DNA of 64,000 nucleotides. It comes from a virus. Its lineage: Duplodnaviria; Heunggongvirae; Uroviricota; Caudoviricetes. Each line of letters starts with the position of its first letter. Positions within the stretch are counted from its first letter, which is position 1. The DNA is taken from IMG/VR virus record IMGVR_UViG_3300048573_000051, positions 15,996 through 79,995 of that record. One strand, written 5' to 3'. The notes beneath the pieces are model-generated. The model did no database searches. It was not told the DNA's origin and saw only the letters and a list, made by a program, of their open reading frames with translations. The position numbers and the translations under genes were made by a program. Shown here in pieces: positions 2,084 through 54,301 of the stretch.

Positions 2084-2716
2084 ATGACAGTACTAAATTT
2101 TCCAACATCTCCTACACTTAACCAAATCTACGTTTCATCTGCTGGTCGTAGTTGGAGGTGGGACGGTTTAAGTTGGATTCCTGTAGGTTCTAATATACCG
2201 TGGGATAAAATATCAGATACTCCTACAACCTTAACTGGTTTTGGGATTACAAATGCACAACCTTTGGACGCAGATTTAACCGCGATTGCAAGTTTGACAG
2301 GTACAAACGGACTATTAAGAAAAACAGCAGTAGATACTTGGAGCTTAGATACTAATTCATATGCGACAAGTTCTGGTGCTGTACTTACAGTGCCGACCCT
2401 TACGGGAACCCGTGAGTCTCGTGTGGCGCTGTCTACTGGCGCGATTGACCTGACATCAGCTAACTACTTCACCCGCACGATCTCAGGCGCTTTGACGTTC
2501 TCGGTATTGAACGTGCCAGCGAACGGTACTGCGATCTCGTTCATCTTAGATTTGACGAACGGTGGTAGCGCAGTGATCACTTGGTGGTCAGGTGTGAAGT
2601 GGGCTGGCGGCACTGCGCCAATCCTCACGGCATCTGGTCGCGATGTGCTTGGGTTCTTTACATACGATGGCGGAGTTACTTGGACTGGCCTTGTGCTTGG
2701 AAAGGACGTGAAATGA
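2084..2716 (+). CDS. tail fibre protein
   Basis: N-terminus LNFPTSPTLNQIYVSSAGRSWRWDGLSWIPV matches the conserved phage tail-fibre N-terminal motif; GC-rich gene followed by a fibre-assembly chaperone. Confidence 0.55.
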   Translation: MTVLNFPTSPTLNQIYVSSAGRSWRWDGLSWIPVGSNIPWDKISDTPTTLTGFGITNAQPLDADLTAIASLTGTNGLLRKTAVDTWSLDTNSYATSSGAVLTVPTLTGTRESRVALSTGAIDLTSANYFTRTISGALTFSVLNVPANGTAISFILDLTNGGSAVITWWSGVKWAGGTAPILTASGRDVLGFFTYDGGVTWTGLVLGKDVK

Positions 2717-3354
2717 CAGCGCGTGATATTATCATGGCTGCTGCAGGTGCAAGCACGGCAAAGGTGTCGCCAGTGCGCAAGGGTGTTTATGCAGGTGATC
2801 TTGTAAACGGATCACTCAGCTTTGTTGCAAGCGCAGGTGACATCGTTATTGCTTTTGCGACTCCTGACTCAAAGGAAGGTCTACTTAACTGGGGCGCTGA
2901 TGCTGGCTGGACACGTATTTCAAATAACCCGTCTGAGAGCGTGGCGCTTTACCGAGTGCAGCAAGCAGGAGATCAAAGTACCGTGACTTTCTATTACGGG
3001 TACGGAAATTTCCGTTTGGATTGGGGGAGAGGCGTTGCTGTTGTCTACGGTGGGGCTGCGTATGACACGGCTGCTCAACACGAGTACGTCTACTCCACTC
3101 CGGTCACAGTCACAGGCCCAACGGCAACAGCGGATAACTCTGTGTTGTTAGGTTTCGTGAGCAGGGGTGATACTAGTGGGGATAGCGTTACTTTGGGGTC
3201 AACTGATCTCACGCAGTTAGCCATCTCGACACTACCAAACTGCGCTCAGTATGCAGGGGAAAAACCAGTGAGTGCAGGGGCAACATCCGCCACTTTTACA
3301 GCCACACAGTCAGACTACGTGTGTGCCATTTTGTTGACTCTTAAACCTGCGTAA
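2714..3354 (+). CDS. tail fibre / host specificity protein (start revised to the ATG at 2714)
   Basis: The track ORF 2581..3354 overlaps the upstream gene; the internal ATG at 2714 has an AAGGACG RBS and an ATGA overlap with the preceding stop; Gly/Thr-rich. Confidence 0.4.
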
Positions 3355-15200: not shown

Positions 15201-16701
15201 TGAAGGTGGTAAATCAGGTAGTAAAAAACTTCGTGATGTCTTAGTTGCTGAGTTGAAGAAACCTGTCACTGTTATCGTAAATGCCCTTGTCAACGCTGCA
15301 CTAGGTGGTTCATCTGGTGGAGGTGGTTCAGGTTCTTCACTGGTTGGTAATTTCATCAGTAATGCAGCAAGTAAATCCTTGGGTAACATTACAATTGGTG
15401 GTAGTACACTAGCAGCAGCAGGAGAATCTTTTGCTACAGGTTTTATGACTACCGTTGGTGGTGGTTCTGTCGAAGCAGCCTCTGCCGCCTACAGTGCAGC
15501 AGGAATGCAAGGTGTAAGTACAGGTTTATCTGCAGGTGCTGCTGTAGCCAGTGCTATCCCTTATGTAGCTGGTGCTTTACTGGTGGCAAATGCTCTTGGT
15601 CTATTTAAAACTACAAAACAAGTTGGTAGTGGTATTGAAGGTACGTTAGGTTCGGGTGACATTAACAGTTACACTACAATGCGTAAATCTGGTAGTCTCT
15701 TCAGTGGACCAAAATACTGGAGAGAAAACCGTGGTGAGTTCTCTGGTTCTGATGCACTACAAGCTACTTTTGCTGATCTAAAGAATTCAACTAGTATGAT
15801 GGCAGAAGCCATTGGTAAATCTTCAGATGACATTGCAGGTTACACTAAGAAAATTGAAATTAGTTTTGATGGTTTAACTAACGAACAGATTCAAGATAAG
15901 ATTGCTACGACTTTTAAAGATGTAGGTAATGAACTTGCTGCATTGGTACTAGGTGCTGGTGCTACTGCTGAACAGTTGAGTTCTTTATACAATAACGTAA
16001 TGCAACAACGTTATGATCTAGAGGCTCAACTACTTGAGTTACAAGGTGATACTGTTGCACTCCGTGAAAGAGAACGCGCTAAAATCTATGATACCAATAA
16101 AGCGTTGTACGATCAGATCAATGCATTAAAAGACAAGCAAGAAGCTGATGCTGCTGCTGCTGAATCATTGCAGAAACTAACTGCTGCGACTACTACAATC
16201 GTTGATGAAATTAACCGTCTACGTGGTGTTAATACATCTAGTACTGCATTGGAATCTCAATTTGCTATTCTAACTGCACAAGCTCGGTCTGGTGACTTAA
16301 CTGCATTAGCTCAACTACCTGAAGTTACTAAAGGTCTTGAACAAATTGCAGCTTCTAGTGCAGTTAATGCAACTGATATTATCGTTGCCCGTGCAAGACT
16401 AGCGCAATCGTTGCAAGACACATTAGGTTATGTCGGTGCTAACGGTCTGTTAAGTTCTTCAGCTACAACCTCTGTTCCTACGGTATCTTCTGTATCAGCA
16501 ACTGGTGCGCCAACTTCTGTAAATTCATCCTCTAGTAATCAAGAGTTATTATCTGCGTTGGTAACTGAAGTTCAAGGTCTACGTGCTGAAGTTAGAGCCG
16601 ATGTTTCACACAACGCTAAAACAGCTAAGATTCTAGAACGTGCTAACCAAGATGGTGAAACACTTAGTGTATCAGCTACTATTGATGGAGGTGTCGTTTG
16701 A
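12271..16701 (+). CDS. tail tape measure protein
   Basis: 1476 aa, long alpha-helical/coiled-coil regions, Gly-rich putative membrane-interacting segment (residues about 1010-1100), canonical position after the chaperone pair. Confidence 0.85.
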   Translation: MDLAELKFVVLTDDLEKAATRIKELGTEVSKLNKPMQDLTKESAKSNKELSKAEEAAAKAALAQLKLEQAQTKSADSTGKSTSVLERQTMILGYMATGLSKGQASYMATAKAAGALDEELGQLETTLKTQRSLIGGDAFDKSIGLMQKLSNETKVTSEVNKLFNQSLGLTEKQMIELAREKERLIALYNHEKRSLDGLDAEYQQIINKSVELNRLNDARTNSMRQQVKAQNDATKANNYISSEMERLNRLTESNGTITSATNNKQIKFEQALKASGKTAKEQADLLKLFNEQMLSTQKAAGNRQVDYLSRALGPQITDIGVGLATGQAPLTILLQQGGQLRDQFALAGVAGADMGKMLVQASKAMVVSVKDIGLAVGQLVTGAITGTGKAIADSIIAPFTRMSEAKAALKQLDDGLISSLRYARLMEVANGRMIQSFISLSKVAGTVAVVGLVMLSKGLSDVIKEQDALATQLVLTGASLGVNTTAAISYANSLNSVGVTTASALKVIQAMAKEGGFLAGEINTIVVAANNLKFAGVAIEDTVKQFAKLKEKPVEALLEIARATGMVAPEITKLVYELTQQGKTSEAAAVAMKAYADVTIQQKDRLKSELSGFAVFIKSLSSNVGEFFDDVFRSLWRKASPTEAIKKEIADVENTIKMGTGASDTTKASNNAKLLALKEQLKLTQQASDADQTRLSDQARSAKAYEGFIKDSEQFASNEMKRKKELAEAETKYQGLVKSGQISQVQYEQLIANIQDKYKTPKTDSQKESDKLFKSYLTDLAKISNLTNGAIKEQENYTKAQKLALDIFASPAFKKYPEQQRIEIANAIERAHAEELIANELERQQKINEQVVKTRNELVEAGAKQLDASKQTTQALIDESALYDYKLTLVGKEEKEAEKLLALKKIQIEYEKEIARIKSLNLLSGTKEDLELEAYKQFILKRENLDKDANLKAALDFQKQFDNLKTGISDSIVTALFEGGKSGSKKLRDVLVAELKKPVTVIVNALVNAALGGSSGGGGSGSSLVGNFISNAASKSLGNITIGGSTLAAAGESFATGFMTTVGGGSVEAASAAYSAAGMQGVSTGLSAGAAVASAIPYVAGALLVANALGLFKTTKQVGSGIEGTLGSGDINSYTTMRKSGSLFSGPKYWRENRGEFSGSDALQATFADLKNSTSMMAEAIGKSSDDIAGYTKKIEISFDGLTNEQIQDKIATTFKDVGNELAALVLGAGATAEQLSSLYNNVMQQRYDLEAQLLELQGDTVALRERERAKIYDTNKALYDQINALKDKQEADAAAAESLQKLTAATTTIVDEINRLRGVNTSSTALESQFAILTAQARSGDLTALAQLPEVTKGLEQIAASSAVNATDIIVARARLAQSLQDTLGYVGANGLLSSSATTSVPTVSSVSATGAPTSVNSSSSNQELLSALVTEVQGLRAEVRADVSHNAKTAKILERANQDGETLSVSATIDGGVV

Positions 16702-26325: not shown

Positions 26326-26880
26326 TCATTGTTTACCTTTCAATTCAGGATTGTACATAAATTCAAGCAAGAACATTGCATTAACGGCTACAGCAGACAT
26401 ATGACTGATAGTTGGGTCACTACTATCTACATCATAGATTTCACCCCTCCTAATAGCCTCAAAATGCCTCATAAGAGCATCCATGTAGCGTTGTTCAGCA
26501 CCTTCTACCTTCTGCCAGTTATTACGCTCTTTATACTTCTTTAAACCTTCAGTTAAATTACGTGCAACTTCCTGTAATGCATACGGAGGTACTAATGTAT
26601 ATTGAAACTTACCTTGATCGTACTTAGTACCGGGAGTTTGCGGTTTATGGTTAGCTTCAAAGCCTTTCCAATCTTGCATTTGATGTGTATTAGACCGTAA
26701 ATCTACTGTTGAAACTGGTACAAAATACACATCATCTCTGGCACAATCTACAAACTTATTTGCAGATGTACACTCGTTACTACCGTTACGGAATGCACAT
26801 AGATTACACCCCTTACTGCTCTCTCTGTCAAAGATAGGTGTATAAACCTCACCGTTAACCGTAATATTGTCCAAACTCAT
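26326..26880 (-). CDS. hypothetical Cys-rich (zinc-binding?) protein, possible nucleotide-hydrolase partner
   Basis: 184 aa; N-terminal Cys cluster CNLCAF...ECTS...VDCA and a conserved-looking C-terminal helical half; directly downstream of the MazG-like gene. Confidence 0.3.
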   Translation of the reverse strand: MSLDNITVNGEVYTPIFDRESSKGCNLCAFRNGSNECTSANKFVDCARDDVYFVPVSTVDLRSNTHQMQDWKGFEANHKPQTPGTKYDQGKFQYTLVPPYALQEVARNLTEGLKKYKERNNWQKVEGAEQRYMDALMRHFEAIRRGEIYDVDSSDPTISHMSAVAVNAMFLLEFMYNPELKGKQ

Positions 26881-33332: not shown

Positions 33333-34145
33333 TTACTCCTTTAGTAAAATTTGTTTAACATTCTCAAACTTAGCAGCATCAAACATATCCAAGATATCTG
33401 TATAGTTATCAATTGCATAGTTTCTAAACCAGCCTGAACACAGTGTAGTACAAATCTTGTTGACTGATTTGTAAAACGCTAGTTTAGCTGGTGTATTCCA
33501 ATCGCTAGGCACTAAGAACCTTTCAGTTGAAATAACATAAGCTTCTTCTGCAATGCATCTAAGTTTGTCTGCATGACTTAGATTGTACCACAAATTTTTA
33601 TCGCACCACGCTAACTTTGAATCTTTTTGTAATTTTTTATACAAAGGTTGATCGTAATAGGCAAACAACTCGTGCAAGTAATCGTGATTGTACTTCTTAG
33701 TTACAGCATCATCAAAGAAATCTTCTACTGTTTGCATCAAGTTTGGATTACCTTGTGGGTATGCTGACATTGTAAGTTTGGTGCGTTTGTTTAGTACATC
33801 TTCATCTTTGTCAGTAAAGAAAGGACGAAATACTTTTAAGTACAGATTGTAGTGCGTCATATGTTTTTCAAACTTCCGATCACGCCACAAGTGACTGCGC
33901 TTTACAATAGCAAGGCCAACAGGATTAACTACGTAAACTCTTTGACCTGCAATCTCAATGTAGTGCGTACTTGCATAGTTTAGTAGATCGTAATTACCGA
34001 CTTGATCAAATGTATGCCATTCAATGCGCTTATTGTCATCTTGAATTTTATGTTCGCTGATAACATCCCAATCTGAATCTGGCTTTGCTTTAAACGTAGC
34101 ACTCCAGTATTGCAATGCTTGTGAACCGATCAGAAGATTTTTCAT
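33333..34145 (-). CDS. hypothetical protein (start revised to the ATG at 34145)
   Basis: The track ORF extends to 34277 and overlaps a tRNA; the internal ATG at 34145 has an AAGGAG RBS at 34151-34156. Confidence 0.45.
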   Translation of the reverse strand: MKNLLIGSQALQYWSATFKAKPDSDWDVISEHKIQDDNKRIEWHTFDQVGNYDLLNYASTHYIEIAGQRVYVVNPVGLAIVKRSHLWRDRKFEKHMTHYNLYLKVFRPFFTDKDEDVLNKRTKLTMSAYPQGNPNLMQTVEDFFDDAVTKKYNHDYLHELFAYYDQPLYKKLQKDSKLAWCDKNLWYNLSHADKLRCIAEEAYVISTERFLVPSDWNTPAKLAFYKSVNKICTTLCSGWFRNYAIDNYTDILDMFDAAKFENVKQILLKE

Positions 34146-34160
34146 GTTAACTCCTTTATT

Positions 34161-34238
34161 TGGTGGACAGTGGCAGAGTCGAACTGCCGCCATGCTTGAG
34201 TTACAAACACCTGTTAGCCGTTTACACAGTAACTGCCC
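34161..34238 (-). tRNA. tRNA-like gene with a non-canonical anticodon arm (anticodon ambiguous)
   Basis: 78 nt with a CCA end; acceptor stem GGGCAGT/ACTGTCC (one G-U); D arm CTGT/ACAG; T arm GGCAG-TTCGACT-CTGCC; anticodon region GTGTTTGTAACTCAAGC folds only with a 5-nt loop or with G32/U37, both atypical. Confidence 0.5.
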
Positions 34239-34700
34239 ATGTTTGGTGTGAGCGACAGGTAACGCTCCTGCTTCCAACGACTTATGAGGTCGCTGCCTGA
34301 CTTCTCGGCTTCACTCACGGTTATAGTAAAATATACATAAATACACTTTACTATAAACTCTGGTCCCTAAACCAGTATTATAGTGTCTTTCGCTCCCGTA
34401 GAAGATTTCTCTCCTATTATTCGTTACACTATTGGACGACAATCCGCATGCTGGAAATCCTGCAGTACAGCGCAACTTGTACTTGCATTTTTAATGACGG
34501 GACTTACACCCGCCTCGCTGGAAGTTTGCCGCTAACTCTAGGGATTTGAGCAACAGGCATCAGCGGGACTATTTATGAATTTAAACTTACGAATCCTTTG
34601 ATTTCCGACTATCGCAGCTTAGATATATCTAGAATCATCTACGAGTAAGTACAAAGGCATCGAGGCTGGCAACCTTTCGGTTCATTCGTAAGTTTAAAAC

Positions 34701-34802
34701 TGGTGTAACTGGATGGATTCGAACCATCGGCTTGGTTTACCCTCTGGCATTTGGTCCTTCACCGTGAAGAGGTTCCTGCTCTACCAACTGAGCTACAGTT
34801 AC
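34701..34802 (-). tRNA. aberrant 102-nt tRNA-like gene with a 49-nt central region lacking a canonical anticodon arm
   Basis: Perfect acceptor stem GTAACTG/CAGTTAC with ACCA end; consensus D arm TAGCTCAGTTGGTAGAGC; T arm GATGG-TTCGAAT-CCATC. No 5-bp/7-nt anticodon stem-loop can be drawn between them; there is an internal hairpin CTTCA-cgg-TGAAG flanked by CCTCT/AGAGG. Confidence 0.45.
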
Positions 34803-34808
34803 ATTGTT

Positions 34809-34885
34809 TGGTGCGAGTGGAGGGATTCGAACCCACGACCAATGGTGTAGAAGACCAGTGCTCTATCCAACTGAGCTACACTCGC
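34809..34885 (-). tRNA. tRNA-Arg (anticodon UCU)
   Basis: 77 nt: GCGAGTG acceptor stem, GCTCAGTTGGATAGAGC D arm, anticodon loop CTTCTAC (U33, UCU, A37) resembling E. coli argU, T arm GTGGG-TTCGAAT-CCCTC, encoded CCA end. Confidence 0.8.
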
Positions 34886-35189
34886 TTAATCTCAATTATA
34901 CATCAGTTTTTAACTTTGTGTCAACAACTCGTAAAATATTTACTCTAATATTCAGCCTAGTCAATTCGTTAAGATCAGATTGTGGCATTGACATACAAGC
35001 TCGTAGTATACCGTTTTTATCATACTGCTCCAACGTTTGATACTCTTTATTGTACTTATACGTGTAACTCATAGTATAACCTTTATGATATAATCGTGTT
35101 TAATACCTGAAGATAAAAATGCAAGTTTAGCTTCATGTTTGTTTTGTGCAGTAATTATAAAGTGCCCAAGCTTAGGTTGCTTGTATTCT

Positions 35190-39753: not shown

Positions 39754-40785
39754 TTATTCGTTTTTAAGTAACCATTTGTTGTTAATTGCCTTAAAGCTGC
39801 AATCATGCACAGTGTTACTCTTAAACACCAAACCTTCACGTTCACTGCCATTTAACAAAGACTTACCTTCAGCATGTTCTAATAGAATCTGAATAGTACA
39901 GTCTTTAATATTGGCAGTTTCTCTGATGATAGGCACATGCTTTAACCCAAGCTTTTCACACGCCGCTTTAAGCTGTACAGGTAAGATATATTGTCCTGTG
40001 TGGGTATTGTACATGTCGTAAACGTAGAAGTCAAGCTGTACTTTGTACTGATTTCCTTGGATACCTTCACCGATCATTTCACCTTGAATTGCCATACCCT
40101 TCATAAAATTACGGCGCATGATATCTTCAATATTAAACTTACGTGCTACTTTCCAGAATGAATTTGCTTCGTCTTCTTTCAAGTCTAAGTTACGTGAGCA
40201 TACATGGAATACACCTTCATCATCAAGATAGAATGTGGAAGAGGAGCCATCAAGCTTTTCCGTGATTGACCAAGTATCTTTTTGGTACTCTTCAAACTGT
40301 CGTGTCAAGTTTTGAATACGCTCTTGATCAGTCTTTGGTACTAGCGCAGGGAAATTACCTCGTGCCATACCAGCAAGTTGAGCGTTCATGGGGCGTTCCC
40401 ATTTGATAATACCAAGAATATCACTTACATCTGATCCTTCGAATTCATCAGGAGTTAGCCAATCTTCTTTTTGTACTTTCGTTAGTACATTTAATGGTAG
40501 CAACAAACCTTGTGAAATTTGACCACGTAGTTTTACTGTACGTAGGCGCTCACCCTTTACACCTTCAAATTCACGAGGCTCTTTACCTTTAGATAGGAAT
40601 GGTGCAATATCGTGACCTACCCACGAGTCAATTTCGATATACACGGCAAGTGAATCAACTGCAAATTCACCCTTCTTTACTACAACTTTCCAACCATCGA
40701 CTACAGCGACTTCAATAGCATCTGCACCTTCGATGGGTTCAATTGCTGCAATCTTACGAATAGTTGCTAATTTACGTTCTGTCAT
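39754..40785 (-). CDS. RNA ligase-like nucleotidyltransferase (Rnl5-like: N-terminal OB-type domain plus central KxDG motif)
   Basis: Motif I ITEKLDGSS in mid-protein; N-terminal MTERKLATIRKIAAIEPIEGADAIEVA resembles the N-terminal domain of the DraRnl-type RNA ligase family. Confidence 0.45.
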   Translation of the reverse strand: MTERKLATIRKIAAIEPIEGADAIEVAVVDGWKVVVKKGEFAVDSLAVYIEIDSWVGHDIAPFLSKGKEPREFEGVKGERLRTVKLRGQISQGLLLPLNVLTKVQKEDWLTPDEFEGSDVSDILGIIKWERPMNAQLAGMARGNFPALVPKTDQERIQNLTRQFEEYQKDTWSITEKLDGSSSTFYLDDEGVFHVCSRNLDLKEDEANSFWKVARKFNIEDIMRRNFMKGMAIQGEMIGEGIQGNQYKVQLDFYVYDMYNTHTGQYILPVQLKAACEKLGLKHVPIIRETANIKDCTIQILLEHAEGKSLLNGSEREGLVFKSNTVHDCSFKAINNKWLLKNE

Positions 40786-40796
40786 TTGTTTCTCCT

Positions 40797-41711
40797 TTAC
40801 ATGTCATCTTTATGTCGAATACCAACTAAAACCGGAAATCTAGGTACGGAGTATCCTGTGCCAACGTCAAAGTACTTAACCTTTGCAAGTTGACCCATCA
40901 GTGATTCTCTGCGTTCCCACAAGTCTTCTCGGATAGCATCAGTCATACCACTGCCACAACTGAATGTATCGCCTTTAGAGGTACGTAGAAGCAACGATCC
41001 CATTGTATCTAAGGCTACCATACCGTCTTTAGCTGTAGAGCGTTCTGTGCGGCCTAATTCATTGGTCTTTGCTTCATTGGTGTTGGTGTACTTAGGCTCC
41101 CAACCGATGATTTCAAATTCATTGTCTACAAAGCGTTTGACTTTCTGCAATTCTGGATTCTTAGTTCCAGATCGACCGCACTTATATTTAGCATCGGTAT
41201 CACGAATCATAACACCTTCTGCACCTTGAGCCAGCATTTCAGCTTCAAATTCATCAAGCTGTTCATCGCATGATATGGAATAGTGCGGCAATACTTCTAC
41301 TCGCAATGGTAAACGATCATCACGATCTATCTTAACCAAATGAGCGTAACGCTCTAACCAAGTAGATGTAGGATGAAAGCGGTCAAATACCCAAAAAGTA
41401 AAATCTGGTTCACCCTCAATACGCATAACTCCAGAAGTACTTTGGTTAAATACATCAGGTGCATTCTTATCACCAATGATTAGTTCACCATCTAGACCCT
41501 CCAGTAACCCACCTGTCCACTGGTTCTTAAAATAAGCTTGAATAAACTTATTTGGAATCGATTTAAGACTACGTGAATAAGCTACACCACCAAATACAAT
41601 GCAGCGAATACCGTCAAGCTTTTCAGACATATATCGGTTTGCTGGTTGTGTCTTAACCTTGGTTTGCTCGATTGCAAGTTGTGGCTTAAAGCCCTCTGGA
41701 ATTGTCATCAT
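40797..41711 (-). CDS. ATP-dependent DNA ligase (T7-like, minimal)
   Basis: Motif I SEKLDGIRC near the N-terminus; 304-aa size typical of phage ATP-dependent DNA ligases; replication module. Confidence 0.6.
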   Translation of the reverse strand: MMTIPEGFKPQLAIEQTKVKTQPANRYMSEKLDGIRCIVFGGVAYSRSLKSIPNKFIQAYFKNQWTGGLLEGLDGELIIGDKNAPDVFNQSTSGVMRIEGEPDFTFWVFDRFHPTSTWLERYAHLVKIDRDDRLPLRVEVLPHYSISCDEQLDEFEAEMLAQGAEGVMIRDTDAKYKCGRSGTKNPELQKVKRFVDNEFEIIGWEPKYTNTNEAKTNELGRTERSTAKDGMVALDTMGSLLLRTSKGDTFSCGSGMTDAIREDLWERRESLMGQLAKVKYFDVGTGYSVPRFPVLVGIRHKDDM

Positions 41712-42283
41712 CGTTCTCCATGTTGATCTGTATATTTTTGAAAATAGTCTCGATTTAAAATTTCAATAGCTGTTTTTCGAGCCTCATATGCTTTATTAAA
41801 AGCAACAGCATCTCCGTATTTTACTGCAGAAAACGAAAGGTTCATCTGTTCACCATTAATATTTTTCCAAGTTGCTCTCCAACTTTTATTTTTGGAGTCA
41901 TACGAAACACCTGTAATTCCTGAGCTATTGTTAGAATTTTTACTTCTATTTTGTAAATTTTCTCTGAAAGATTTTACACAAAGATTTTTTAAATTGTTAT
42001 TGTGTGCATTTCTGTCCATATGATCAATAACACAAGATTTATCAAAAATATCAAAATCAGGGTTAAACAGTTTCCAAATAATTCGATGTACAGCATAAGA
42101 TTTATTATCAAATGTAACTCGCCAACTCTGCGGTTTACCTGTTTTTCTAAATATTCTGTGTCCGGCAATATCATTAAAATGAGCAACTGTTTGTCTACCT
42201 TTTTGAGTAAGTTTGTTACATTTCCAACGTAGGCAACTTTCACTTGTCTCATCGTAATAAAAATAATCTTCAAATCTGATCAA
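41708..42283 (-). CDS. HNH-AP2 homing endonuclease
   Basis: VIDHMDRNAHNNNLKNLC HNH core followed by an AP2-like GITGVSYD...WRATW domain; paralogous to 53720..54301. Confidence 0.6.
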   Translation of the reverse strand: MIRFEDYFYYDETSESCLRWKCNKLTQKGRQTVAHFNDIAGHRIFRKTGKPQSWRVTFDNKSYAVHRIIWKLFNPDFDIFDKSCVIDHMDRNAHNNNLKNLCVKSFRENLQNRSKNSNNSSGITGVSYDSKNKSWRATWKNINGEQMNLSFSAVKYGDAVAFNKAYEARKTAIEILNRDYFQKYTDQHGER

Positions 42284-49574: not shown

Positions 49575-50465
49575 ATGCTGTTAACATACGATCAACAAAT
49601 GAACTTGGTTAATCGTGGTCTAGCTACCATGAAAAATGATGGGAAATACACTACGTTCAAATACCATCGTAGAGCCATGTATGATTATCTCTGGTATGAA
49701 GTACCTGAATTGTTGGAATCGCGTGGACACGTATACCACAATAGCACAAAAGAACTAGTACAAGCTGCTCCACGTAAAAGCTTCAATTATCTTGAACGTG
49801 GCTACTGGAGTGAAGTACCACTAGATACTCCAGTTGAAATGTACAAGAAAATCAATGGTTTTATGGCTTGTGCTACACTACACAATGGTGAATTGATTGT
49901 ATCTACTACAGGTACAACCACAAGTGAATACGCTCAGTGGGCTAAAGATTTAATCGTTCGTGATATGAAACTTTGGGATATTATGCTTGATGATAAAACT
50001 ACAGTTCTATTTGAAGTTGTAGTACCACAAGACCCACACATTGTACAAGAGCGTCAAGGTTTGCACTTACTTGGTGTACGTGAGAAGGATACAGGAGATT
50101 TTTACCCTTTAGGTTTTAATACTCGTTGTTCTTTAGAGCAAGCATTGGAAATCGCAAAGTGCGCCCGTGGTGAAGGTTTTATGGTATATCCTTTAATTGC
50201 TGATGCAGGTAATCCATTTGGATACCACAATTACAATCACTGCTGTAAACTAAAGACTCCATACTACGTTGGCAAGAAAAAGTTGATGCGTATGACAGCA
50301 AAGAACGTTGAATTGATGTACAATAATCTTCCGCACACGATCAGTACGTTACCTGAGATGTGGCATGAGGTTCCTGAACAGATTGTACAGAGCGTTCATA
50401 AAGACACATGGTTAGCTATGAACGATCAACAACGCAGGGTAATTCTTGAAGATTTTAAAGGATAA
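49575..50465 (+). CDS. putative RNA ligase (Rnl2-like nucleotidyltransferase)
   Basis: Candidate motif I KINGF resembling the Rnl2 KIHG; 296 aa; located between the kinase and phosphoesterase genes. Confidence 0.35.
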   Translation: MLLTYDQQMNLVNRGLATMKNDGKYTTFKYHRRAMYDYLWYEVPELLESRGHVYHNSTKELVQAAPRKSFNYLERGYWSEVPLDTPVEMYKKINGFMACATLHNGELIVSTTGTTTSEYAQWAKDLIVRDMKLWDIMLDDKTTVLFEVVVPQDPHIVQERQGLHLLGVREKDTGDFYPLGFNTRCSLEQALEIAKCARGEGFMVYPLIADAGNPFGYHNYNHCCKLKTPYYVGKKKLMRMTAKNVELMYNNLPHTISTLPEMWHEVPEQIVQSVHKDTWLAMNDQQRRVILEDFKG

Positions 50466-50813: not shown

Positions 50814-51386
50814 ATGAAAATATTCACAAGTGATTTGCACTTTGGACATAAACGAATTGTAGAATTTACAAACCGTGCTGTTGATTGCACCTCACAAGAA
50901 AATCACACAGAGTGGTTAATCGATGTTTGGAACACAGAGGTATCTGCAGGTGATATTGTGTATCATCTAGGGGATTTCTCATTCTTTAAAAAGTACAGTG
51001 AAGTAGCTGATGTTGTTTCACAGCTTAAGGGTTCTAAGATTTTCATCAAGGGTAATCACGATAAACGAGAGCATCTAGATGAACTGGTAGAAGACCAACT
51101 AATCGCAGCATGGTATGACTACAAAGAGATTAAACTAGGTGATACTCCTGTAGTACTATTTCACTATCCTATCGCGTCTTGGCATCGTCAGGGTCATGGT
51201 GCATATCATCTGCACGGTCACTGTCATGGAAACTTTAAAGATAGTAAAGGTAAAATGCTTGACGTAGGTATTGATTCAGTGTATAATCTGTATGGTAAGC
51301 ATGGGTTTTTAAACGAACAACAGATTAGTGAATTCATGAAAGAAAAAGAAATCTACATTGCAGATCATCACAAGGAGTATAAATGA
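50814..51386 (+). CDS. calcineurin-like metallophosphoesterase (candidate 3-prime-phosphatase / 2-prime,3-prime-cyclic phosphoesterase)
   Basis: DLHFGH ... HLGDF ... GNHD ... metal-binding motifs of the metallophosphatase superfamily; 190 aa. Confidence 0.6.
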   Translation: MKIFTSDLHFGHKRIVEFTNRAVDCTSQENHTEWLIDVWNTEVSAGDIVYHLGDFSFFKKYSEVADVVSQLKGSKIFIKGNHDKREHLDELVEDQLIAAWYDYKEIKLGDTPVVLFHYPIASWHRQGHGAYHLHGHCHGNFKDSKGKMLDVGIDSVYNLYGKHGFLNEQQISEFMKEKEIYIADHHKEYK

Positions 51387-51895
51387 AAGATATCCACCCG
51401 AAGCTAAAACTGAAGCTTGACACAATCAAGAAAGATTATCAAAAAGTGACAGCATTTGCTGAACTCCTATCATTATTTGCAGGTCGTATCATTGATCGTG
51501 AGTTTACAGGAGATCGTTATTGTGAACTAGCTGATTATTATAAGCAGATTCCTTTTAATTGGGGTATTAACTGGGGTGTCAACTCACCAACTAACTTTCC
51601 AGATGATAAATATCACCAAGGTTTAGTCAATGTATATATCAACTGCATGAGTCTATTTCATGATGATGTTTATCATATTGCACAAAAAGAATTGTGGGAA
51701 GCAATGAAGGATGTTCCATGCTATTATACTGATGTTCTAAATTCTACGTTTTATTTTAAACCTGATGAAATTGAAGTTGGACTAGAAGCTTTAAATAATT
51801 GGTATGTCAAAGTTAAAGATAGCACTCAAGATTATCTGAAAGAACAAAAACGCAAGCAATTACAAGCACAACTACAGGAGTTAGATAATAAATGA
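51383..51895 (+). CDS. hypothetical protein
   Basis: 170-aa ORF; ATGA overlaps on both sides. Confidence 0.35.
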   Translation: MKDIHPKLKLKLDTIKKDYQKVTAFAELLSLFAGRIIDREFTGDRYCELADYYKQIPFNWGINWGVNSPTNFPDDKYHQGLVNVYINCMSLFHDDVYHIAQKELWEAMKDVPCYYTDVLNSTFYFKPDEIEVGLEALNNWYVKVKDSTQDYLKEQKRKQLQAQLQELDNK

Positions 51896-53719: not shown

Positions 53720-54301
53720 TTGAAAAAGCTTATAAAGAACGCTGGTTTTAAATTGGAATACGCTGACTATTTTGAATATACCAGTGAAAGTCCTAGCGGA
53801 TTAAAGTGGAAATTTTCTCATGGTTGGAATGGAAGATATTTTATTAATAAAGAAAATAGTGTAGTTGGTACGATAGTTTATCAAAGAAAGACAGGTAAAC
53901 CTCAAAAATGGGTTGTAAAGTTTGATGGCAAGTATTTAGCAGTACACAGAATAATTTATATTATGTTCCATTCCAACATAAATGAGAATATGGTGGTTGA
54001 TCACATAGACAGAAATCCGTTAAACAATAGTATCGAAAATTTGAGAATTGTGCCAAAATTGATCAATAATCGGAACTACTCGAAATATGCAAACAATACA
54101 TCTGGTAAAACTGGTGTACAATTAACAAGAGATAACAGATTTAGAGTTACATGGAAAGAATTTGGTAAACATTGCACAAAATCTTTCAGTATTTCTAAAT
54201 ATGGCTATGATACAGCTAAGAAATTGGCGTATTCTTTTAGGGATAATGTTTTAGAACGTTTGAAACAAACCCACAACTTTTCATCAAATCATGGAGAATA
54301 A
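53720..54301 (+). CDS. HNH-AP2 homing endonuclease
   Basis: VVDHIDRNPLNNSIENLRIV HNH core plus an AP2-like TGVQLTRDNRFRVTW domain; AT-rich. Confidence 0.65.
   Translation: MKKLIKNAGFKLEYADYFEYTSESPSGLKWKFSHGWNGRYFINKENSVVGTIVYQRKTGKPQKWVVKFDGKYLAVHRIIYIMFHSNINENMVVDHIDRNPLNNSIENLRIVPKLINNRNYSKYANNTSGKTGVQLTRDNRFRVTWKEFGKHCTKSFSISKYGYDTAKKLAYSFRDNVLERLKQTHNFSSNHGE

Follow-up and report, generated by a model that had tools for sequence, protein, structure and literature searches.

The minus strand of a 64,000-nucleotide stretch of a caudoviricete genome (IMG/VR record IMGVR_UViG_3300048573_000051, positions 15,996 to 79,995; hereafter the window) carries a cluster of tRNA-shaped genes, two of which, here named B (102 nt) and D (78 nt), are very probably conserved tRNA mimics that do not decode. 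Each belongs to a discrete, virus-only RNA family, not detected in collections of cultured-phage or bacterial genomes, whose secondary structure is maintained by compensatory substitution, and both keep the acceptor stem, the D/T elbow, A73 and the CCA end, whilst the anticodon limb has been rebuilt away from the standard form. The top half of both genes is that of a canonical tRNA (7-bp acceptor stem, CCA, a D arm with G18G19 and a UUCRANY T loop), and neither has a canonical anticodon arm, that is, a 5-bp stem and 7-nt loop with U33 and R37 at a fixed distance from the elbow. The parts used by RNase P, by 3'-end processing and by proteins that read the acceptor and T arm are thus retained, and the compensatory changes within conserved families place both B and D under selection.

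The region 34161-34924 is best explained as a single promoter-driven operon of small RNAs, holding two decoding tRNAs (Arg-UCU and CAU) and the two mimics. Spacers between the cassette genes are short, there is one consensus promoter, and a TATAAT..TGAG lead-in likewise stands ahead of the first tRNA in related loci. A first-pass annotation made from the sequence alone had listed a clean tRNA-Arg(UCU) and two aberrant tRNA-like genes; ARAGORN calls exactly the same ends for all three and the Arg gene is indeed clean, but a fourth tRNA (C, with a CAU anticodon) had been overlooked. The 380-nt stretch between B and C is occupied by two structured RNAs (H120 and E) and is not an empty gap. An independent Logan assembly matches the JGI metagenome base for base across the intergenic region, and since two independent samples agree the cluster is not an assembly artefact. 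The features of the cassette, all on the minus strand, are as follows:

34895..34924 (-): sigma-70 promoter with the consensus TTGACA-18 nt-TATAAT (12/12 hexamer positions match), heading the RNA cassette
34809..34885 (-): tRNA-Arg(UCU), canonical, CCA encoded (ARAGORN tRNA-Arg(tct); Rfam RF00005 68.9 bits, full match)
34701..34802 (-): B, tRNA-like, 102 nt (ARAGORN 'tRNA-Arg(acg)'; Rfam RF00005 49.9 bits)
34580..34700 (-): H120, a structured RNA of ~120 nt with a 15-bp terminal stem and the internal motif UUCUAGAUAUAUCUAAG
34320..34575 (-): E, a multi-helix non-coding RNA, supported by covariation, plus a hairpin ending just before the next gene
34244..34318 (-): C, tRNA with a CAU anticodon (Rfam 40.8 bits)
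34161..34238 (-): D, tRNA-like, 78 nt (ARAGORN 'tRNA-Val(aac)'; Rfam 27.3 bits over 34238..34164)
33333..34145 (-): DUF7277+DUF7275 gene, a predicted minimal nucleotidyltransferase, with its ribosome-binding site (RBS) directly after D

The B and D families

Related loci or contigs, numbered L001 onwards (L051 being Limnohabitans phage DC31), were gathered using a downstream-protein search (17 IMG/VR loci), a conserved DNA motif search (26 loci), a metagenome scan by protein (6 loci) and a protein-alignment search (80 loci at 44-91% identity). The six loci added by the metagenome scan contain neither B nor D.

B has a 7-bp acceptor stem, U8, a GCUC/GAGC D stem, G18G19, a GAUGG/CCAUC T stem, the T loop UUCGAAU, A73 and an encoded CCA, and every nucleotide of the tertiary core is present (U8, A14, G15-C48, G18G19, U54U55C56 and A58). 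Its score against the Rfam tRNA model exceeds the gathering score of 29 bits on the top half alone. Where that model has 15 central anticodon-arm positions the RF00005 alignment of B has 41 nt, and when the gene was scanned exhaustively for stem-loops, none combined a 5-bp stem with a 7-nt loop carrying U33 and R37. A canonical refolding was rejected on these two results, neither of which reveals a hidden anticodon arm. The first-pass description of intact acceptor, D and T arms with 49 nt between the D and T stems and no canonical anticodon stem-loop is thereby borne out, and the covariance-model check that it had put forward as the means of overturning it assigns no standard anticodon arm to either B or D.

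The arm that stands in this place is irregular and 43 nt long, with G27-C69 and G28-C68, an internal loop AA/GUAAA, the helix CCUCU:AGAGG and the apex GGU-GAAGG-ACC. This structure was predicted first by RNAfold, and RNAalifold independently yields the same fold from the alignment. Two hairpin elements had been proposed from the sequence alone: the CCUCU/AGAGG pairing is supported by covariation, whilst the inner CUUCA-CGG-UGAAG hairpin, which overlaps it, was dropped, as it is not kept in the relatives L116 and L117 and the GGU/ACC apex covaries instead.

A scanner for T-arm and acceptor complementarity located B-like genes in L054, L060, L088, L090, L101, L116 and L117, and IMG/VR scanned with a degenerate pattern yielded these seven contigs again; an exact-motif scan for the insert gave known copies only. 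The family thus comprises eight full members and one truncated at a contig end (L095), next to a protein that is 50-91% identical. In a seven-sequence alignment, controlled using 500 shuffles and slid registers, 97% of cells are paired and seven pairs are doubly changed. Four of these lie within the replacement arm (33:60, U-A to G-C; 34:59, C-G to A-U; 35:58, U-A to C-G; and, in the apex, 42:48, U-A to C-G), the others being two acceptor pairs and one T-stem pair. The covariation score was matched by 0/500 shuffles, and slid registers fall to 24-40% pairing. With a covariance model (R2) members score 118-128 bits and the L095 fragment 75, against at most 51 for ordinary tRNAs; the tRNA-like genes of the L040 type reach 39.9 bits and are not members. 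Across phages B is 83-92% identical, whereas identity falls to 58-81% in the adjacent tRNA-Arg and to 50-56% in the flanking protein. The sequence of the arm (GGAA, a GAAGG loop, CCAAAUGC and GUAAACC) hardly changes outside the pairs that are compensated.

ARAGORN reports B as a long tRNA and the phage encodes two RNA ligases, from which it might be proposed that B is an intron-containing tRNA whose insert of ~26 nt is excised, perhaps by means of those ligases. We consider this most improbable: no excision restores a 5-bp anticodon stem (the conserved AAACC faces GGAAC, with A29·A67 and A30·A66 unpairable), there is no group I/II core and no match to an intron family in Rfam at E<=10, and the insert is the most conserved part of the gene.

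The acceptor, D and T parts of B are closest to those of the phage's own tRNA-Arg(UCU), and the acceptor of the tRNA-Arg in L107 (GCGACUG/CAGUUGC) is that of B in L088 and L090. Judged by these similarities, B is a paralogue of tRNA-Arg(UCU) that kept the core of the L-shape and had its anticodon arm swapped for a longer, specific structure. Arginyl-tRNA synthetase (ArgRS) relies mainly on two determinants, the D-loop base A20 and the anticodon base C35 (PMC9976931); the D loop of B reads AGUUGGUA, versus AGUUGGAUA in the adjacent tRNA-Arg, with A20 lost and C35 missing along with the anticodon, and B thus lacks both ArgRS identity elements. G3·U70 occurs in only two of the seven aligned members, and B does not carry the identity set of alanyl-tRNA synthetase (AlaRS) either. 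Three further assignments of B were tried and rejected, namely a class-II tRNA with a long variable arm, which fits the tRNA-Ile(UAU) of L016 and not B; a kink-turn in the internal loop, where no tandem G·A was seen by eye; and a YrlA RNA, for which the Rfam match scores 28.3 bits, well under the cut-off of 69, and straddles two genes, covering the T arm of tRNA-Arg and the D arm of B.

D carries G3·U70, A73, an encoded CCA and an 11-nt D loop (GUAAACGGCUA), with G8 in most relatives. Rfam RF00005 leaves its anticodon region unaligned and scores it below the gathering score of 29. Two folds are available, as the first-pass annotation had described, with either a 5-nt loop or atypical positions 32 and 37: a UGUUU/AAGCA stem with the loop GUAACUC (G32, U33, U37, C38), or a 7-bp stem (26:44 to 32:38) closed by UAACU. 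An exhaustive scan recovers a perfect 5-bp stem, but the loop GUAACUC carries U37.

Neither blastn against close relatives nor a scan of IMG/VR with a 20-mer of the T arm found D. A distant homologue in L114 exposed the odd D arm as the conserved part, and a scan for CTGTGTAAAYGGCTAACAG then revealed the family on 12 contigs (12 sequences), mostly inside arrays of 7-39 tRNA genes; ARAGORN misses most of the other members. No match to a family member was found using blastn against 50,697 phage records, and a motif scan of 185,579 bacterial and archaeal species genomes gave one chance, non-tRNA match. In the alignment of the 12 sequences 99.3% of cells are paired and 14 pairs are doubly changed, with RNAalifold in agreement, and the corresponding covariance model (R1) gives members 87-105 bits, the next best being a phage tRNA-Ala(UGC) at 46 bits.

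The bacterial AlaRS identity set consists of G3·U70, A73 and G2-C71 (PMC9976931), and in the D family these are found in 12/12, 12/12 and 11/12 members respectively. Acceptor pairs 4:69, 5:68 and 6:67 covary freely around G3·U70, and 2:71 varies also. Canonical tRNA-Ala(UGC) genes co-occur in D-bearing arrays and carry the same GGGCUGU...GUCCACCA acceptor; the D-family loops (WAACY, CRCAAA or UGAAUAA) are not those of an NGC anticodon, so D is not tRNA-Ala proper. On these comparisons D is closest to phage tRNA-Ala, the AlaRS determinants being held while the surrounding pairs covary. Its T-stem pairs 50:64 (G-C) and 51:63 (C-G) match those of E. coli tRNA-Ala.

In the anticodon limb, pair 26:44 covaries between C-G and G-U and the stem runs continuously for 7 bp to an invariant G32:C38. 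The pentaloop is WAACY, in which position 33 is A in 4/9 members and position 37 always a pyrimidine, and three of the 12 members have an arm that is 2 bp shorter with 6- or 7-nt loops (CACAAA, CGCAAA or UGAAUAA). Given what is established of tRNA structure, the variable distance from elbow to anticodon and the dispensability of U33 and R37 argue that D is not a decoder.

The opposing view, raised in the first-pass annotation, is that D, and conceivably B, is a working decoder whose anticodon loop has been altered to escape anticodon nucleases, with D reading GUU by means of AAC. Watson-Crick 32:38 pairs are seen in some normal tRNAs, the window copy of D has a perfect stem and U33 and is called Val(AAC) by ARAGORN, AAC is found in 9/12 members, GUU accounts for 41% of Val codons, and phage tRNAs do evade nucleases via changes to the anticodon loop (PMC10264068). 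B, without an anticodon loop, falls outside this proposal. For D it is unlikely, given the A33 and Y37 of the family, a G32/C38 pair that can close the loop to 5 nt, the three members with shorter arms and other loops, and an acceptor that is of the alanine type (G3·U70) and not of the valine type (G3-C70/U4-A69). An alanine acceptor joined to an AAC loop would, in a decoder, place Ala at Val codons, and D may be an alanine-charged RNA that reads valine GUU codons in deliberate mistranslation.

Decay can be weighed against the same data. If B and D were functionless, decaying duplicates, or by-products of homing-endonuclease shuffling of the cassette, the mosaic make-up of the cassette, the endonuclease-like open reading frames (ORFs) at or in the tRNA-Arg gene of L011, L041, L045 and DC31, the many variously damaged-looking tRNA-like genes of related loci and the precedent of SegB, a homing endonuclease in the T4 tRNA cluster (PMC2330249), would all be accommodated. 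This is nevertheless highly improbable, as every helix, including the novel arm, is kept by compensatory substitutions, B is more conserved than the functional tRNA-Arg beside it, its tertiary-core nucleotides are all intact, and both families stand more than 40 bits apart from ordinary tRNAs.

Possible functions of the two RNAs

We envisage that RNase P and 3'-end enzymes would cut the promoter-driven transcript into four tRNA-shaped RNAs, of which Arg and C would decode and B and D would not, D being charged with alanine. B and D would vie with genuine tRNAs for binding to proteins that recognise the acceptor stem, T arm and CCA, whatever the anticodon. Cas12a3 is a protein of this kind: it grips tRNA by its acceptor stem, T arm and CCA and cuts off the tail regardless of the anticodon (PMC12851939). 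On the host side the likeliest partners would be tRNA-directed immune effectors, such as CCA-tail nucleases or nucleotidyltransferases of the MenT/AbiEii type; on the phage side, the MenT-like enzyme encoded immediately downstream. The suggestion in the first-pass annotation that the two genes are decoys or mimics continues to offer the best reading of genes that are aberrant, conserved and marked by compensatory changes, whereas nothing in the data speaks for the primer role also suggested there. Taken as a whole, the proposal that B and D are non-decoding mimics acting as surrogate or decoy ligands is plausible, at somewhat short of an even chance, whilst the decoy mechanism specifically, aimed at proteins that read the acceptor end, is put forward only tentatively. 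The wider scheme, that in the freshwater-clade and big-array phages B and D serve as RNA counter-defence, with D alanylated, and that the MenT-like enzyme and E form with them a module for maintaining or regulating tRNA ends, is doubtful.

Four observations weigh against the surrogate or decoy proposal. The sequence conservation of the B arm implies a specific partner for the arm itself, which a pure acceptor-end decoy leaves unexplained. The amino-acid identity of D could be dual, in that its AAC core and A73 match the A35/C36 determinants of valyl-tRNA synthetase. Outside this clade the D family accompanies the nucleotidyltransferase-like gene in just 1/12 loci, and decoy tRNAs are not known for the cited defence systems, the word 'decoy' being absent from the two papers searched for it.

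Two alternatives also assign B and D a role outside decoding. In one, they are punctuation for processing and stability, recruiting RNase P and 3'-end enzymes for the benefit of H120, E and the 5' end of the downstream mRNA. RNase P needs only the acceptor/T half of its substrate, the short spacers, encoded CCA and single consensus promoter are in keeping with such a role, and D lies 15 nt before the start codon of the downstream gene, directly ahead of the RBS, a place taken elsewhere by tRNA-Met, C or a hairpin. Canonical tRNAs already flank the positions of B and D, however, and neither the conservation of the B arm, nor the invariant G3·U70 of D, nor the presence of D inside big arrays of ordinary tRNAs, far from genes of that kind, is explained, making this rather unlikely.

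In the other, D would donate alanine outside ordinary decoding, either to a tRNA-dependent transferase or to ribosomes, codon-independently, in the manner of transfer-messenger RNA (tmRNA). tmRNA is alanylated through G3·U70, and D combines the G3·U70/A73/G2-C71 identity set with the tRNA-Ala-like T-stem pairs noted above. Against this, no partner enzyme was seen, there is no mRNA-like domain (an ARAGORN tmRNA search of the window found none), and the full anticodon arm of D would fill the place that SmpB takes on tmRNA; we regard the idea as quite unlikely.

Phage tRNAs have so far been explained by codon supply or by replacement of host tRNAs destroyed by nucleases, and as look-alikes that do not decode B and D would fit neither explanation. 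If our preferred reading as non-decoding mimics is true, viruses would be putting the tRNA shape to a third use, as a mimic directed at proteins that recognise the acceptor end, and standard annotation mislabels such RNAs ('Arg(acg)', 'Val(aac)') or overlooks them. No description of either family was found in Rfam 15, among the 50,697 phage records or in the literature that could be searched, where nothing relevant turned up on tRNA-like RNAs of phages that have U70 or an alanine identity.

Neighbouring RNAs, the downstream gene and related phages

Among the other cassette RNAs, tRNA-Arg(UCU) is the near-constant decoder, found in most related loci, and AGA makes up 19% of Arg codons. C was missed by ARAGORN and found by Rfam between B and D. 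Its anticodon loop CUCAUAA is canonical (CAU; Met or Ile2) and its elbow is degenerate, with A8, a D loop lacking G18G19 and the T loop AGCGUUA; near-identical copies are present in L005, L011, L038, L040 and L113, the last beside a flanking protein of 56% identity. H120 has a minimum free energy z-score of -3.7, with 0/200 shuffles folding equally well, and its five variants (window, L035, L040, L101 and L105) keep both stems via compensatory changes. The motif UUCUAGAUA lies within it and turns up again in other tRNA-like genes of this clade.

E (~200-250 nt) lies nearly always between the tRNAs and the nucleotidyltransferase-like gene, and nhmmer detects it upstream of that gene down to 48% protein identity; it has no Rfam family match at E<=10. 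At least 21 distinct versions exist, several hairpins covary and RNAalifold gives 10 doubly changed pairs. An invariant hairpin loop A-UCCCUA is complementary to the loop UAGGGA of a later hairpin. An apparent TATAAT box in E is one strand of the helix ACUAUAAU:GUUAUAGU, which can pair instead with ACUAUAAC just before the RBS of the next gene, and in L001 and L095 all three of these 8-nt segments, each complementary to the others, differ in concert. This suggests that they may form an alternative-pairing switch just ahead of the RBS.

The downstream DUF7277/DUF7275 protein is predicted to be a minimal nucleotidyltransferase. Structurally it is nearest to MenT1/3/4 and AbiEii-type toxins that modify tRNA 3' ends, with weak scores, and searches of Pfam at E<=1 and of PDB profiles gave no match. 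MenT toxins extend tRNA 3' ends (PMC10435456, PMC7450476, PMC11541572). A tRNA lies at most 1.2 kb upstream of the gene in 32/58 loci having at least 1 kb of upstream sequence, and many other loci have tRNA-Arg or tRNA-Met within ~2.5 kb downstream. Relatives of the gene were found in 735 phage records, among them those of the T4-like Karamvirus, where they lie close to nudE and the lysozyme gene.

Further genes of the window that bear on tRNA or nucleic acid metabolism are:

49575-50465 (+): Rnl1-type RNA ligase, PF09511 (domain match)
50814-51386 (+): metallophosphoesterase (weak match), adjoining the Rnl1-type ligase
39754-40785 (-): second RNA ligase, PF09414 with a PHA02142 OB domain
26326-26880 (-): ORF with PF18909, the dATP/dGTP diphosphohydrolase N-terminal domain (E 2e-26)
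41708-42283 (-): HNH-AP2 homing-endonuclease-type ORF
53720-54301 (+): HNH-AP2 homing-endonuclease-type ORF

An ATP-dependent DNA ligase is also encoded. From these domain matches the two RNA ligases and the metallophosphoesterase likely form a tRNA-repair toolkit, and the presence of the Rnl1-type ligase would amount to an investment in tRNA damage control. Of the repair-type genes named in the first-pass annotation, both RNA ligases are thus present and the phosphoesterase is a weak match only; the kinase was not found, the ORF at 51383-51895 having no P-loop. The PF18909 ORF hints at manipulation of nucleotide pools or at modified DNA bases.

The phage is distant from cultured relatives. 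No full-length phage polymerase in the collection exceeds 46% identity to its DNA polymerase (PolA), with a single fragment of 2.5 kb reaching 79%, and megablast of the region against cultured phages gave a sole match of 52 nt, to Limnohabitans phage DC31. The homologue of the downstream protein in DC31 is 63% identical, making DC31 the nearest cultured relative, and the label 'T5-like' used in the first-pass annotation does not hold. From DC31 and Curvibacter phage P26059A the hosts are likely to be freshwater Burkholderiales. DC31 shows the same layout: an HNH ORF is followed by a tRNA-Arg(UCU) that lacks a D arm, by a conserved non-coding element and a hairpin, and finally by the homologue of the downstream gene; nothing is annotated in the RNA slot of its record. 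E and the MenT-like gene are further leads that can be addressed in a culturable system, DC31 and its relatives.

Across related loci the slot between promoter and downstream gene is a mosaic, in which tRNA-Arg(UCU) and the ~200-250-nt element are nearly constant and the remaining content comes and goes between phages with ~90% identical flanking protein. The cassette is thus hypervariable, with accessory turnover among near-identical phages as expected of arms-race or counter-defence loci.

Insertions of HNH or similar endonuclease-like ORFs were noted above for the tRNA-Arg gene of three loci and of DC31. A D-arm-less variant of tRNA-Arg(UCU) with a long variable region was observed at L010:5242-5317, in L041, at L088:2130-2204 and in DC31 at 2690-2770 (-), where the record carries no annotation of it. 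An HNH endonuclease ORF directly precedes this variant in L041 and DC31, and in L041 a 10-nt 5' fragment of a normal tRNA-Arg lies upstream of the HNH ORF. The arrangement looks like a homing-endonuclease insertion with a cleavage-resistant replacement gene. Other ORFs lie between tRNA-Arg and E at L011:4400-5440, where the ORF is rich in CxxC repeats, and at L045:2560-3100; these inserted ORFs are probably further homing endonucleases.

At least five more families of tRNA-like genes with a normal acceptor and T arm and a non-standard middle were seen in the related loci. They include a GAAGCUG... type (L001:5557-5670, L012, L033, L034, L039 and L098), a GGACAAG... type (L006, L010, L012, L013 and L098), a GUACGUU... 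type (L006, L114 and L147, adjoining D-family genes in the latter two), an AUAACUG... type (L038 and L040) and a gene at L095:86-153. Examples of their middles are a GUUA tetraloop hairpin plus a variable hairpin, a possible H-type pseudoknot (AUGCU..CUUCCU..AGCAU.AGGAGG) and 8-nt loops, and a mini form of 64 nt also occurs. A tRNA-Ile(UAU) of 92-103 nt with a long variable arm and the loop AGAUAA/AGAUUA also recurs in phage tRNA arrays, with genes at:

L066:2882-2984 (-): long-arm tRNA-Ile(UAU)
L136:3399-3490 (-): long-arm tRNA-Ile(UAU)
L141:9289-9380 (-): long-arm tRNA-Ile(UAU)
L142:7990-8081 (-): long-arm tRNA-Ile(UAU)

Comparison with known systems

Phage tRNAs with changes in the anticodon loop evade tRNA-targeting defences, as described for mycobacteriophage tRNAs, for T5 tRNA-Lys against PARIS and for T5 tRNA-Tyr against the retron PtuAB (PMC10264068, PMC11464382, PMC11555353). 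B and D resemble these in being phage-encoded, in lying in tRNA clusters and in having an anticodon region unlike that of the host, and probably share with them the conflict over tRNA-directed immunity. The nuclease-escape tRNAs, however, decode with a 7-nt loop on a normal arm and replace a cleaved host tRNA, whereas B has no anticodon loop and the D family has a variable arm without U33 and R37. Such an escape tRNA is defined by decoding geometry together with the identity for its cognate aminoacyl-tRNA synthetase; B lacks both, and D combines an alanine acceptor with a non-alanine loop.

The tRNA-like domain of tmRNA and the 3' tRNA-like structures of plant viruses likewise place their mimicry in the acceptor/T half, with alanylation through G3·U70 (tmRNA) or charging without decoding. 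B and D differ from them as free-standing cloverleaves of ~75-100 nt with normal D arms, lacking an mRNA-like domain or a pseudoknotted acceptor, and neither the ARAGORN tmRNA search nor Rfam matched a tmRNA in the window.

In T4, too, a phage tRNA operon contains small RNAs that are not tRNAs: the stable species 1 and 2 (rnaC/rnaD) are co-transcribed with the tRNA cluster and processed with the tRNAs. A search of the T4 SegB paper (PMC2330249) for these two species found no mention of them.

Non-canonical natural tRNAs include tRNA-Pyl, mitochondrial tRNA-Ser(UCN) with 6-bp anticodon stems and allo-tRNAs (PMC7609411, PMC5389517). D is like tRNA-Pyl in its paired 26:44 and 3-nt variable region, and like allo-tRNAs in an acceptor identity decoupled from the anticodon. 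All of these, in contrast, keep a functional 7-nt loop and decode, and none offers a counterpart to the G32:C38, Y37 and variable arm of D or to the 43-nt arm of B. The Y-RNA-like YrlA, which is bound with Rsr, is a non-coding RNA that mimics the tRNA elbow, but it is circularly permuted relative to tRNA and B is not.

B and D would work like the tRNA mimics (the tmRNA domain, the viral structures and YrlA) and sit where nuclease-escape tRNAs sit, whilst departing from the defining features of each. They appear to be new as families, and the kind of mimicry that they employ, that of the tRNA shape, is already known.

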